The notes: generated by a model not told the origin, from the letters alone. Shown: positions 39,408 to 56,254, counted from the first letter of the stretch. The stretch is DNA of 64,000 nt from an uncultured Acidobacteriota bacterium (GCA_963717075.1 CAVQVI010000002.1:30402-94401), one strand, 5' to 3'. Program-made: numbers and translations.

Positions 39408-40505
39408 TCACGGCTTCTGAGTTGTAGGACGAGGCTTGGCCTTCTGCTGCGCCTTCTCCTTCTCCATCGCGCGCGCACCGGCCAGGATGCTCGTCATCGC
39501 GTAGTTGCCTTCATGGCACGACGACTCGTAAATCTGATTGGCTTTCTCATCAGCCTTCGTCAGCGGAACTTCGATCGTCCAAGGCCGGGTGAACGTGGTC
39601 GGGTCCTCGATCGTCGCGCGGAAGATGATGAGATCCGGGCCCTCCCGCGTGTACCGTTCGGTCAGGTGCAGGTTCTGGCTGGAGCCCTGGAAGTTCGTCT
39701 TTTCCGAGAAGTTCGTGATGTCGACGACGAGCGTATTGCCCTCCCATTTGCCGCGGGCGTCGCCGAGATATTGACGCACGTCCGGTGGGAGCTGCGGGCG
39801 ATTGCCGATCGGGATGGCACGATACACTCCGCCGGCATGGCCATCTTCGTGGAACATCGCCACCTGTCCTGGCGCCTGCACGATGCGTCGGACGCCGGAC
39901 GAAACGCCTGTGATGAATGGCAGCGCGACGCCGAGGCATCGATCAGACCCGGGTCTCGACTCCGGATTGTCTGAGGGGCCGGCGTCTCCAGTCTCATTCT
40001 CGAGATTGCGCCTGAACGAGGCCGCCCGCTTCTCGCCTTCGGCGGTCCGAGCGGGAATCCTGCCGTCGGGTGGATCGATAATCAGCGACGTGCGCTTGGT
40101 TCGGATCACGCGTTCGTGCGCGCCGCCCTTGCTGAACGCTTGATTGTAGGCCCCCGCGAGATCCGCTTCGGTACCCCTCTCGGCACGTGCGCGGCCCCCG
40201 GCGCCGTCTCCGCCAAATTGTGTGGCGTGCGCGCGCTCGAGCGCGACCACCTCCTCGTCGGTGAGAAACTCCTTGAGCGCGAGCTCCTTCGGACGTTCGA
40301 GCGGCGTAAACACGTACCCGACACTCCAGATGCCCCCGATATCCGGATCGCCCCATGACGTCCGCGCGAGCTTCCAGTTGGTCGGCGCGCTTAGCGACTT
40401 TTGACCGGGTGCGCCCGATTGGCCGGCAAGATGAACGGTCACTACGCCTACGCTCAAGACGAGCAACGCAATGAGCGTTCTGTGAGGCTGAATACGCATG
40501 GTCAA
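39408..40505 (-). CDS. exported protein of unknown function, paralog P1
   Basis: Signal peptide. Family motifs WGDPDIGGIW, PLERP, FLTDEE, TSLIIDPPDGRIP, DRCL, GDARGKWEGNTLVVD, ERYTR, DPTTFTRPWT, YESSCHEGNYA. Confidence 0.8.
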   Translation of the reverse strand: MTMRIQPHRTLIALLVLSVGVVTVHLAGQSGAPGQKSLSAPTNWKLARTSWGDPDIGGIWSVGYVFTPLERPKELALKEFLTDEEVVALERAHATQFGGDGAGGRARAERGTEADLAGAYNQAFSKGGAHERVIRTKRTSLIIDPPDGRIPARTAEGEKRAASFRRNLENETGDAGPSDNPESRPGSDRCLGVALPFITGVSSGVRRIVQAPGQVAMFHEDGHAGGVYRAIPIGNRPQLPPDVRQYLGDARGKWEGNTLVVDITNFSEKTNFQGSSQNLHLTERYTREGPDLIIFRATIEDPTTFTRPWTIEVPLTKADEKANQIYESSCHEGNYAMTSILAGARAMEKEKAQQKAKPRPTTQKP

Positions 40506-41207
40506 TGATCCTTTCCCGATACGCAGACCGTCTCGACAGCGCTTTGGCTAATAGCCTCGCGCCCAAGATGTTACACCTGCTCGGCCTCGCCTGCGCGTCT
40601 CGCAAGTGCAGACTCACGGTAGATGAGCCGCACGTCGCTGACGCCGGAGCAGCCGCACGACCAGCCTGGAGTCGACCATTGCCATCGATTTGTTTTCTGG
40701 ACACTTACTCGCAGATTCGCTATATGTTTGCCCATGCAAACAACCCTTGAAGGCAATGTCGCCGTCGTCACCGGTGGAAGGGCTCGGCAACGAACTCATT
40801 GACGGCCCACCGCCGATCGATGGCGTCCGTCGGATTCGCCGTCGACAGCGCCTCGGCGGGCTCCCCAATTATTACAGTCGCGCAGCCTGATGAGACCCGA
40901 GGATCGATTCGACGGCTCGCTCAACGACGGGACATTACGGGCCCATCAACTGCCGAGGCGATTACCGTGCTACGGTGGAACCCCCGGTCGTTAAGACGGT
41001 CCGCCAGATAGTTCGCACGCATTCTATACGTGCATGGTAGCGGCCTTCTTGCCGCAGTAATACCTCAGGCACAGATACTTCCGAAACCTCGATCGAGTTA
41101 TTGGACATTACGGGAACTCGCACGCAAAGACTCCAGAATGTCCGTGCAAATAGCACGGAACATTACGGGCCTTGACCAAACGTGAATTGTCATACAAAAT
41201 GTCATAC

Positions 41208-41459
41208 ATGAGAAAGGCCACCATCTCGATACGCGAGCTCCAGCAGAACCTCAAACGCGTCATGGCGCGAGTCGAGCGCGGCCAGGTGATCGAGGTCACA
41301 CGGCGACGCCGGCCGATCGCGCGGCTGGCTCCGTTGCGGTCTGCGGGTCCCCTGTCTCCATGGCCCGATCTCGACGAGCGTGCCCACGCGGTTTTTGGTG
41401 ACCGTGTCGTGAAGCCAGGCCCCTCGGCGATCGTCATTGAGAATCGTGGCGATTGGTGA
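41208..41459 (+). CDS. Phd/YefM-type antitoxin
   Basis: MRKATISIRELQQNLKRVMARVERGQVIEVTRRRRPIARLAPL. The track ORF starts at 41172. Confidence 0.75.
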   Translation: MRKATISIRELQQNLKRVMARVERGQVIEVTRRRRPIARLAPLRSAGPLSPWPDLDERAHAVFGDRVVKPGPSAIVIENRGDW

Positions 41460-53971: not shown

Positions 53972-55027
53972 ATGCCAAGGTTCGGAGAGCAGCGAAGTTT
54001 GATGCGATTCTCAACGTTTGTCGGGGCGTCCATCTGTATGCTGCTGCAAGTTGGCGGTACGACGGCGGGGTCCTGCGATCCGGCAGGCAATGTCCGGTTC
54101 GTTTGCGATCAATCTTCTCCCGAGGATCTGGCGATCGTACCCGGCGGGCGGTGGGTGATTGCTTCCGGCATGGGGGACAAGGGCGGCATCCGTCTCATCA
54201 ACGTGCGGGACAGCACGTCGACGGTGCTGTTCCCGGCGCCCTCCGCCAAGGTGCGCCCGGATGGCAAGACTTACAAGGCGTGCCCTGGTCCCCTAGATGC
54301 GGCCGCACAAGCCATCTTCAAAGCGCACGGGCTCTATCTTCGCCCCGGCAACACCTCGGTCCACCGACTGTTCGTGGTCCATCACGGCAGCCGGGAGTCG
54401 ATTGAGGTTTTCGACCTCGACGTCAACGCCGGGCCACCGACGCTGACGTGGGTGGGCTGCGCTGTTGCGCCGGAGGGACCCGGGTTGAACTCCGTCGTCG
54501 GGCTGGCAGACGGCGGGTTCCTCGTGACGAATTTTCACCCGCGGGGCGAACGCCCGGCCTGGCTCCAGAAAGCGCGGGCCGGGGAGAACACCGGCGACGT
54601 GTGGGAGTGGCGCCCGTCGAGTGGATGGATGGTCGTCCCGGGCAGCGAAGCCCCGGGACCGAACGGGCTGGAGATCTCAAAAGACGGCAAGTGGCTCTAC
54701 ATCGGAGTCTGGGGCAGCCAGTCGGTCACCCGGTTGTCGCGCGGCCAGACGCCGGCGAAGAAAGACTCGGTTGTCGTCGGGTTTCGGGTCGACAACCTGC
54801 GGTGGGCGCCGGATGGTTCGATAATCGCTGCCGGTCAAGGGGAAAAGACTTCGCATGTGGCGAAGGTGAACCCGGACACGCTGAAGTTCGAGGAGATTGT
54901 CCGCCATCCCGACACCGACGTGTTTCGCTCTGGGACGACGGCCGTTCAGATTGGCAACGAGGTCTGGGTGGGCTCGGTCGGGAGCGATCGGATTGCACGC
55001 ATTCCAATCACCAGCCAGGCCCGGTAG
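53972..55027 (+). CDS. exported SMP-30/gluconolactonase/arylesterase-like six-bladed propeller
   Basis: AGGAGG 5 nt before ATG. ..PEDLAIVPGGRWVIASG.., ..PNGLEISKDGKWLYIGVWG.., ..VWVGSVGSDRIARI. Confidence 0.65.
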   Translation: MPRFGEQRSLMRFSTFVGASICMLLQVGGTTAGSCDPAGNVRFVCDQSSPEDLAIVPGGRWVIASGMGDKGGIRLINVRDSTSTVLFPAPSAKVRPDGKTYKACPGPLDAAAQAIFKAHGLYLRPGNTSVHRLFVVHHGSRESIEVFDLDVNAGPPTLTWVGCAVAPEGPGLNSVVGLADGGFLVTNFHPRGERPAWLQKARAGENTGDVWEWRPSSGWMVVPGSEAPGPNGLEISKDGKWLYIGVWGSQSVTRLSRGQTPAKKDSVVVGFRVDNLRWAPDGSIIAAGQGEKTSHVAKVNPDTLKFEEIVRHPDTDVFRSGTTAVQIGNEVWVGSVGSDRIARIPITSQAR

Positions 55028-55252
55028 GAGGCGAGTTTCGCTCCGCGACACATTGGGCAAGCGGTTTTGAACGCGAGGCAACGGAACAGCAGTGCAAGGG
55101 AAGACGACGACGAAGTCGGCTCCAAGCAACAGTCGCGAGTTGACGGTCTGATGCGGGCTGGCAGGGGCAGCGAATCCGGGCTTCGTTTCAACGACGCCGG
55201 AGTGAAAGACGCGCTAGAATGAGCCAACTGGCAGGGTGCCGAAGGAGGTCAG

Positions 55253-56254
55253 ATGCGCCATCGTATTCCCGTCTTTGTGAGCAGCGTGGCGGTGTTGGTC
55301 GCGCTGGTCTTGGGCGCCGCGTCCACGGCCCAGACCAAGGTGCCGAACACGCCCTGGGGCAAACCGGACCTGCGAGGGATCTGGGATTTTCGAACCATTA
55401 CGCCGTTGGAGCGGCCCGCGCACCTGGCCGACCGTGAGTTCCTGACGGAGGAAGAGGCCACCAGACTCGAACGGGAGGCGGTCGACCGGGAGACCGAGCT
55501 GAACGGGCGCGCGGCCGAGCGGACGACGCCCGGCGACAGCGTGGATCGGCGGGCCGACGGGTCGCCGGGCTTCTACAACAGTTTCTGGCTCGACTACGGT
55601 ACAAAGCCCGTGGGCACTCGGCGCACGTCGCTCCTCCTCGATCCGCCAAACGGGAAGCTGCCCAGCCTGACGGCGGCTGCGCAGCAACGGTCCGAGGCAC
55701 GGCGGGCGTATCTGCAGGAGCATCCTGCCGATTCGTGGCTGGACCGAAGTCCGTCGGACCGCTGCCTCGTGGGGTTCAACGCCGGTCCCCCCATCACGCC
55801 GGGCGGCTACAACCAGAACCTTCAGGTGTTTCAGACGCCGAACCACGTCGCGCTCCTCACCGAGATGGTGCATACGACGCGCATCGTGCCGCTCGACGGG
55901 CGTCCGCCGCTGCGCGACGTCCTCCGGCAGTGGTCGGGCGATTCGCGAGGACATTGGGAAGGCGAGACCCTGGTCGTAGAAACCGCGAATTTCAAGGGCG
56001 CGCGCGACTGGAGGGGCTCGTCCGAGCAGATGACGCTCGTCGAACGCTTCAGGCGGGTCGACGCCGACACGCTCGAATACACCTATACGGTGAACGATCC
56101 GGAGACCTGGACGAGACCGTGGACGGCGTCGATTCCGATGCGGCTGAGCGTGTTGCCGCTCTACGAGTACGCGTGCCACGAAGGGAATTACAGCCTGGCG
56201 AATATCCTGTCGGGACATCGCGCCAAGGAGAAAGCCGCGGGGACGAAGCCGTAA
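55253..56254 (+). CDS. exported protein of unknown function, paralog P4
   Basis: WGKPDLRGIW, PLERP, FLTEEE, TSLLLDPPNGKLP, DRCL, VPLDGRPP, GDSRGHWEGETLVVETANF, ERFRR, WTRPWT, YEYACHEGNYS. Confidence 0.8.
   Translation: MRHRIPVFVSSVAVLVALVLGAASTAQTKVPNTPWGKPDLRGIWDFRTITPLERPAHLADREFLTEEEATRLEREAVDRETELNGRAAERTTPGDSVDRRADGSPGFYNSFWLDYGTKPVGTRRTSLLLDPPNGKLPSLTAAAQQRSEARRAYLQEHPADSWLDRSPSDRCLVGFNAGPPITPGGYNQNLQVFQTPNHVALLTEMVHTTRIVPLDGRPPLRDVLRQWSGDSRGHWEGETLVVETANFKGARDWRGSSEQMTLVERFRRVDADTLEYTYTVNDPETWTRPWTASIPMRLSVLPLYEYACHEGNYSLANILSGHRAKEKAAGTKP

Follow-up and report, generated by a model that had tools for sequence, protein, structure and literature searches.

Calycins, among which are the fatty-acid-binding proteins (FABPs) with CRABP and UnaG, the SAHS proteins of tardigrades, the lipocalins, and streptavidin, are small antiparallel beta-barrels of 8-10 strands with up-and-down topology, eight in lipocalins and avidins and 10 in FABPs; lipocalins carry a GxW motif in strand A along with a conserved Arg, and FABPs have a helix-turn-helix lid between strands A and B. 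Other described systems that come close to the proteins studied here are the histidine-brace copper sites of CopC and the lytic polysaccharide monooxygenases (LPMOs), the OB-fold proteins CcmE and CusF, and the accessories of pyrroloquinoline quinone (PQQ) alcohol dehydrogenases (MxaJ/XoxJ-type proteins and cytochrome cL). We analyzed four related genes, P1-P4, and a fragment, P5, that lie between positions 39408 and 56254 of a 64,000-nucleotide stretch of DNA from an uncultured Acidobacteriota bacterium (GCA_963717075.1 CAVQVI010000002.1:30402-94401), which as a whole is called the window below. An earlier note on this DNA had taken them for a local expansion of an exported protein family that may be spreading as cargo of mobile islets. 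Our analysis instead places P1-P4, all intact, exported, and of the "solo" L type, in a very large uncatalogued superfamily, and P5 is a decayed copy.

Comparison with described systems

The family appears to resemble calycins in its predicted core, a putative small antiparallel beta-barrel after whose last strand a helix would pack. It differs from them in that the Pfam models of lipocalins and FABPs matched none of 62 diverse members at E ≤ 1, in an N-terminal wrap of ~160 residues and an EYACHEGNY cap that have no counterpart in calycins, and in a conserved Cys pair. Moreover, the G.W motif of the family falls in strand 4 rather than strand A, and no helix pair is found between strands 1 and 2. 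Another close system is an uncharacterized triad of genes encoding an S-type barrel, an L-type barrel, and DUF6152 (PF19649). P1-P4 are L members of the barrel family of this triad and keep every L-type invariant residue, whereas they stand alone, as no S-type or DUF6152 gene was found beside any of them among the open reading frames (ORFs) of the window. The likeness to the histidine brace of CopC and LPMOs and to the OB folds of CcmE and CusF concerns DUF6152 only and is one of analogy: DUF6152 is exported, with a mature His-His N-terminus in 27 of 27 copies, invariant Asp, His, and Glu residues, and a predicted OB barrel, but it matches neither the sequences nor, with any strength, the folds of CopC, LPMOs, or CusF, and CcmE is found only at rank 46. 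Like the accessories of PQQ alcohol dehydrogenases, the family is co-located with PQQ dehydrogenase genes above chance (34 vs 9.9); unlike them, it has a different fold, no Pfam match, and no heme motif, and some genomes have PQQ dehydrogenases but lack the family.

P1-P4 belong to a very large uncatalogued superfamily

Listing and translation of ORFs located all five copies as the earlier note had described them, four intact and one fragmentary, and a five-way alignment recovered in them each motif of the ordered set that it had listed. P1 (39408-40505, minus strand) is a 365-codon ORF with a probable ATG start at 40499 and a hidden Markov model (HMM) score of 360.7. P2 (46419-47507, minus strand) has candidate starts at 47483, 47471, and 47444, of which the GTG at 47444 proposed earlier is plausible; its third-codon-position GC content of 0.64 is the lowest among P1-P4. 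P3 (52108-53100, minus strand), the most divergent of the four, lies in an ORF that is open to 53292, and we placed its likely start at the ATG at 53100 because a signal peptide directly follows that Met. P4 (55253-56254, plus strand) starts at 55253 and encodes 333 amino acids. P5 (47590-47758, minus strand; inside ORF 47441-48067) comprises ~56 codons and covers barrel strands 5-7 only (TLVVDTTNF...ERFTR...DP), the tblastn match being limited to query residues 236-295. Since its similarity to the family ends at 47759, where a ~75-nt multi-copy repeat (47755-47831) starts, P5 is a truncated pseudogene.

In pairwise BLAST, the window copies matched each other with 170-345 bits and 35-56% identity over 314-368 residues, a resemblance far beyond chance that, at the sequence level, is to be read as homology. 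P1-P4 all carry the barrel block Q...E...R...GD.RG.WEG.TLVV...ER...Y.T..DP together with both conserved Cys residues, and they have the blocks that define the L type, namely W/G.PD..G.W, PLERP, and DPPDGR.P in the N-terminal part and the EYACHEGNY cap at the C-terminus. Their HMM scores were 360-462, compared with 100-160 for the S type.

The genome is Vicinamibacterales-like and consists of 6.14 Mb on 42 contigs, for which a crude gene call gave 5,881 genes. An HMM built from the 62 diverse members detected 119 family genes, which amount to ~2% of the gene complement, and tblastn of P4 against the genome gave 144 matches. From HMM scores and consensus lines, 67 of the 119 were assigned to the L type (full length, as P1-P4), 12 to the M type, which has a different N-terminus and keeps EYACHEGN, and 40 to the S type, which has ~275 amino acids and consists of the barrel only, without H-E-G-N-Y. 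A hydrophobic N-terminal segment ~36-40 residues before the first motif was found in 101 of 106 family members of the genome by a heuristic that is not SignalP.

Searches of public collections showed how large the family is. P4 matched at least 8,000 proteins in a collection clustered at 90% identity; any names given by the sources were "hypothetical," and none of these proteins carried a precomputed Pfam domain. At 50% identity clustering, at least 16,851 representative clusters were matched at E ≤ 1e-3. Named close relatives in public records belong to Vicinamibacterales, other Acidobacteriota, and several marine Gammaproteobacteria. Neither the window proteins, nor the 62 diverse members, nor the S and M types matched Pfam or NCBIfam at E ≤ 1, and a sequence search of the PDB with two profiles and an S-type sequence gave nothing meaningful. 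No paper was found in full-text literature searches on CHEGNY or DUF6152, and those on Vicinamibacter together with PQQ returned nothing relevant. These negative searches and the hydrophobic N-termini bear out the previous description of the copies as exported proteins with no characterized domain. Although the family comprises at least 16,851 clusters at the 50% identity level and accounts for ~2% of the gene complement in some Acidobacteriota of soils and sediments, it has no entry in Pfam, NCBIfam, or the PDB and no literature that we could find.

Predicted fold and conserved residues

An AlphaFold2 model of P4, run on the alignment of 62 sequences, had a pLDDT of 87.2 (87 in round figures) and a pTM of 0.85. 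It consists of a signal or anchor helix (residues 5-25); an extended but confidently predicted N-terminal part, which includes two helices (66-84 and 141-156) and a disordered loop (93-106); a run of eight strands between residues 189 and 299, for most of which pLDDT is >90; and a C-terminal helix (310-330), at the start of which lies the cap motif EYACHEGNY (E-x-x-C-H-E-G-N-Y). Foldseek against the PDB gave weak matches only, all to small ligand-binding barrels (SAHS, UnaG, CRABP/CRBP, NanoLuc, and streptavidin), with E values from 3e-4 upward and TM-scores of 0.43-0.49 normalized to the target and 0.23 normalized to the query. The top matches, to FABP-like barrels (SAHS, UnaG, and CRABP), had E values of 3e-4 to 8e-3 and 113-121 aligned columns. 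The core is therefore predicted to be an eight-strand calycin-like beta-barrel wrapped by the N-terminal extension. Family, PDB, and Foldseek searches alike returned no confident match to a characterized family, the weak barrel matches having come from Foldseek.

In 288 L sequences, the following residues (P4 numbering) were 93-100% conserved: G36, P38, G42, P51, R54, S126, P131, G134, and P137; R170, C171, Q194, E204, and R210; G229, G233, W235, G237, and T239-L240-V241; and E264, T279, D282, E305, C308, H309, E310, N312, and L319. The CHEGNY and GD.RG.WEG.TLVV blocks are likewise conserved at 93-100% in these sequences. Across paralogs that share only 30-40% identity, ~14 polar or charged residues are near-invariant. 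The L, M, and S types have in common both Cys residues and, in the barrel, Q, E, R, W, E, and D. The only two conserved Cys residues, C171 and C308, are ~137 residues apart. Because this pair is retained even in the His-less S type and the protein is exported, a structural disulfide is the most economical explanation, and the two invariant Cys residues presumably form one.

DUF6152 as the partner in a core operon

The distribution of the family follows that of DUF6152. Among 26 relatives, the family was present in 19 and DUF6152 in exactly the same 19, both being absent in the other seven (Fisher's exact test, 1.5e-6), and the copy numbers of the two were correlated among relatives (Spearman 0.94). 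Across the phylum, sampled evenly with 121 genomes, 11 genomes had the family and the same 11 had DUF6152, while the remaining 110 had neither. The seven relatives without the barrel family and DUF6152 are G006, G007, G017, G019, and G021-G023, two of which belong to the same family; their sister genera have 16 to >80 copies, and the spread is accordingly all-or-nothing within one order.

In six genomes with few copies (G016, G027, G076, G088, G100, and G135), the sole DUF6152 gene directly follows an S-then-L pair, on the same strand and within ~80-150 nt. It follows from this layout that the S-L-DUF6152 operon represents the basic unit, from which the solo L genes of the window are derived. 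S and L genes are often adjacent, and frequently accompanied by DUF6152, in this genome, Bryobacterales, Holophagales, other Acidobacteriota, and a gammaproteobacterial metagenome-assembled genome (MAG). This genome has ~13 dyads or triads of S, L, and DUF6152 genes and 22 DUF6152 matches. For a statistical comparison, genes up to three positions away from a family member were clustered and named by Pfam, and 500 random placements served as the null. By this measure, 16 of 19 DUF6152 genes were within three genes of a family member, compared with 2.2 +/- 1.5 for the random placements. Most L copies in the expanded lineages have left the ancestral operon and now lie beside PQQ dehydrogenases, beta-propellers, hydrolases, and TonB-dependent receptors.

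DUF6152 itself has features of a metal-binding protein. Cleavage of the signal peptide leaves a mature His-His N-terminus in 16 copies near family genes of this genome and in 11 from other loci, and H1, H2, D9, N27-P28-H29, W46, and E49 were invariant in the inspected copies. The AlphaFold model (pLDDT 86) shows an OB fold, for which Foldseek retrieved SSB, PriB, and the N-terminal domain of LysRS, with the periplasmic heme chaperone CcmE at rank 46 (E 9e-3). The combination of an N-terminal His, another His, and a carboxylate is reminiscent of the histidine-brace copper sites of CopC and LPMOs, and by this analogy DUF6152 is probably a metal-binding protein. In an Acidobacteria gp5 MAG, a single ORF (L078:3740-5110) fuses DUF6152, including its signal peptide and His-His, to an S barrel; a second, stand-alone DUF6152 gene follows this fusion. 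The strict co-occurrence of DUF6152 with the family and the three-gene core operon provide a defined minimal system for expression and testing.

Neighboring genes and natural fusions

PQQ dehydrogenases were also enriched as neighbors, with 34 of 91 lying within three genes of the family (9.9 +/- 3.5 expected; the maximum of 500 draws was 20). TonB-dependent receptors were found near the family 10 times against 2.8 expected, and PQQ_2 propeller genes 10 times (of 36) against 3.5 expected, the latter being a weak signal since 12 was reached in the 500 random draws. Further recurrent neighbors were an unnamed heme-c protein, NHL propellers, "cyclase" hydrolases, and phosphotriesterase-like genes. 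An exported 483-amino-acid family with one CxxCH (e.g. C27:315343-316794), which has no Pfam match, occurs in ~40 copies in the genome, 12 of them within three genes of a barrel gene against 4.2 expected.

BLAST clustering gave ~91 PQQ dehydrogenase paralogs in the genome (e.g. C34:531555-533330), an expansion comparable to that of the barrel family, and among relatives the number of barrel genes was correlated with that of PQQ dehydrogenase candidates (Spearman 0.81, uncorrected). PQQ dehydrogenases were present in 19 of 19 family-positive relatives and in four of the seven negative ones. Because they occur in these four, and because of the proportions in G020 (given below), the link to PQQ dehydrogenases is looser than that to DUF6152. 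The parallel expansion suggests that a large share of periplasmic carbon processing in abundant uncultured bacteria has gone unrecognized.

Several family members are fused to other domains. Two L members (C10:730132-731940 and C7:43682-45508) have N-terminal tandem VOC/glyoxalase-dioxygenase domains behind the signal peptide (PF00903, E 6e-17), a terpene-cyclase-like toroid that contains a CxxCH motif is joined to one family member, and a Lipocalin_5 domain to another (P0216). Together with the fusion of DUF6152 to an S barrel, these natural fusions support a physical or functional coupling of the family to small-molecule chemistry.

Proposed function and alternatives

Taking the conserved residues and the gene contexts together, we propose, with somewhat less than an even chance of being right, that the L protein is an exported periplasmic barrel for the handling of small molecules, probably a catalytic or cofactor-dependent one. 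Its active part would be a constant polar site made up of Q194, E204, R210, W235, E264, and D282 of the barrel and E305, H309, E310, and N312 of the C-terminal cap. The barrel would hold a small organic molecule there and carry out, or assist in, one common chemical step on it, and the variable loops would set the range of substrates. The set of paralogs may then parallel the 91 PQQ dehydrogenases in handling diverse organic compounds in the periplasm, and in the ancestral operon the L barrel would work with the S barrel and metal-loaded DUF6152. We favor chemistry because of the ~14 invariant polar residues, the probable metal-binding partner, the fusions to metalloenzyme folds, and the periplasmic enzymes encoded nearby.

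Several points weigh against this proposal. Calycins are mostly binders, not enzymes, and the charges that are invariant might serve in structural salt bridges by which the wrap is tied to the barrel, instead of forming a functional site. The fold match is weak, as the query-normalized TM-score of 0.23 indicates, and both a closeness of C171 to C308 and the placement of the conserved residues are inferred. The enrichment tests and phyletic profiles ignore phylogeny and gene clustering. Furthermore, the link to PQQ dehydrogenases is statistical, not obligatory, as G020 has at least 33 PQQ dehydrogenases and three family genes. Finally, a consistent partner of solo L genes was sought in Gammaproteobacteria and none was found; the L neighbors there are heterogeneous and include thiamine pyrophosphate (TPP) enzymes, aldo-keto reductases, a peroxiredoxin, and hydrolases.

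The main alternative, only somewhat less probable than our proposal, is that the barrel is a passive periplasmic carrier that, like lipocalins and FABPs, would sequester or shuttle hydrophobic or amphipathic small molecules without chemistry. Its cargo could be molecules that PQQ dehydrogenases consume or release, or compounds that enter through TonB-dependent receptors. Such a role would agree with the structural neighbors, which are ligand-binding calycins only, with the enrichment beside TonB-dependent receptors and PQQ dehydrogenases, with the fusion of P0216 to a second lipocalin-like domain, and with the diversification to ~120 paralogs, which is typical of specificity families. However, ~14 near-invariant polar or charged residues are unusual for binders whose ligands differ, and chemistry is indicated by the fusions to VOC metalloenzyme domains and by the fact that an OB protein that probably binds metal is an obligatory partner.

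A more specific version of the proposal that the barrel takes part in chemistry, which we regard as rather improbable in its details, is that S, L, and DUF6152 constitute an undescribed periplasmic metalloenzyme or metal-dependent redox system of Acidobacteriota and Gammaproteobacteria. The metal, mononuclear and probably copper, would be bound by DUF6152 at a histidine-brace-like N-terminal His-His site of its OB fold, and the L barrel would contribute the substrate pocket and Glu and His residues. In Vicinamibacterales, L would have radiated into dozens of solo variants, P1-P4 among them, that together with ~90 PQQ dehydrogenases form a toolkit for the periplasmic oxidation of diverse organic compounds.

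The conserved Cys residues had also been suggested to mark either a disulfide or a site of the metal or heme type. If the second idea is elaborated, a heme or metal would be bound through Cys, either as a single-Cys c-type heme at A-C-H or as a Cys/His metal center, and the protein would be a redox partner of PQQ dehydrogenases. The C-H dipeptide is indeed near-invariant in the L and M types, and the family lies beside PQQ dehydrogenase and cytochrome c genes. However, no CxxCH heme-attachment motif was found in the L barrel, the fold is not cytochrome-like, and both Cys residues are kept in the S type without the His, which fits a disulfide. The heme idea was accordingly rejected on the absence of CxxCH and the retention of Cys where His is lost; a heme or metal center on Cys in any form is highly improbable, while the disulfide half of the suggestion was strengthened by the His-less S type. 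Similarly, we give hardly any weight to a non-enzymatic role as a structural or stress-protective secreted protein like tardigrade SAHS, or as an envelope or adhesion component: SAHS proteins are the top Foldseek matches and the family is abundant and exported, but SAHS has the FABP fold, the match spans the generic barrel only at 12-14% identity, and the conserved DUF6152 operon and the enzyme-rich neighborhoods argue for a metabolic role.

Origin of the window copies

The reading of P1-P4 as a recent local expansion does not agree with their relationships to the other copies of the genome. There are 115 further copies elsewhere, and the nearest paralog of every window copy sits on a different contig, at 43-53% identity. 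The best paralog of P1 is C23:9220-10335 (52%) and that of P2 is C16:48396-49574 (53%), while the best paralogs of P3 reach 41-43%; across the family, the median identity to the nearest paralog is 57%. P1 and P2 are mutually third-ranked matches (56% identity), and P3 and P4 rank 23rd-61st in the match lists of the other window copies. In a maximum-likelihood tree of 76 L and M copies, P1 and P2 fall in a seven-member clade with copies from C23, C16, and C34, whereas P3 joins any other window copy only at the root and P3 and P4 belong to different deep clades. Local tandem duplication is thus rejected by the paralog identities (35-56%), the off-contig nearest paralogs, and the tree: P1-P4 are old paralogs that are neighbors by chance in a variable region.

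The suggestion that the copies spread as cargo of small mobile islets fared no better. In its favor, the stretch contains an intact insertion sequence (IS), a repeat resembling an IS end that truncates P5, and duplicated Phd-PIN modules; it is not syntenic in relatives, and even genomes of the same genus lack close orthologs of P1 and P3. However, the window copies are only 35-56% identical, with no more than a loose mutual closeness between P1 and P2, and the many copies elsewhere have the distant nearest paralogs described above. Moreover, 10 of 119 family genes lie ≤5 kb from a Phage_integrase, DDE_Tnp_1, or rve match, compared with 6.7 expected from all genes (p=0.23), and P2-P4 are three of these 10 owing to a single IS at 49778-51334. 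An association with mobile elements is thus rejected genome-wide, and a recent local expansion by islet cargo, which is largely refuted, is very unlikely. Among 25 relatives, including same-genus genomes, no ortholog of P1 or P3 above 57% identity was found, and the best match of P3 had 50% identity; P4 has 86%-identical orthologs in public data. The repertoire of the family therefore turns over fast between lineages through old divergence and gain and loss, not through recent copying. Annotation should place the genes in a single superfamily divided into L, M, and S subtypes and should not describe them as islet cargo.

Local context of the window copies

The region around P1-P5 is variable and rich in debris. 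P1 is convergent with a gene pair at 37293-39018, which encodes a sulfite-oxidase-like molybdopterin oxidoreductase followed by a small cytochrome c (a SorA-like/cytochrome c pair). This pair is the sole part of 37-57 kb that is collinear in a same-genus genome (72-76% identity), and no synteny beyond it was found in five related genomes, a comparison limited by MAG fragmentation. ARAGORN detected zero tRNAs in the window, where an att/tRNA site had been considered.

An NHL-repeat beta-propeller gene (48303-49448, plus strand) adjoins P2 and P5. P4 is co-directional with the genes on both sides of it. Directly upstream is an SGL/gluconolactonase-like beta-propeller gene (53966-55027, plus strand; weak SGL match, E 1.3e-3), and downstream are a gene for an exported HEAT-repeat and PQQ_2 propeller protein (56590-58995, plus strand) and cyclase genes. 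The local context of P4 fits the genome-wide pattern of neighbors.

Two Phd-PIN modules are also present in the stretch, and a duplicate of one of them, 96% identical, lies at a distance of 15.8 kb. The duplicated part (45256-45555 and 61015-61314; 300 nt at 96% identity) concerns a Phd/YefM antitoxin gene and a partner gene for a 147-amino-acid protein without a Pfam match. The repeat of ~75 nt at 47755-47831 has other copies on contigs C2, C13, and C21 (85-90% identity) and is probably an IS-end remnant that cut P5. The sole intact mobile-element gene between the copies is the IS transposase gene at 49778-51334 (plus strand; DUF772 and DDE_Tnp_1). The related genome G004 contains four sequences that match this IS at 79-82% nucleotide identity, and three of these are full-length. 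The matches suggest that the IS family is active in this clade.

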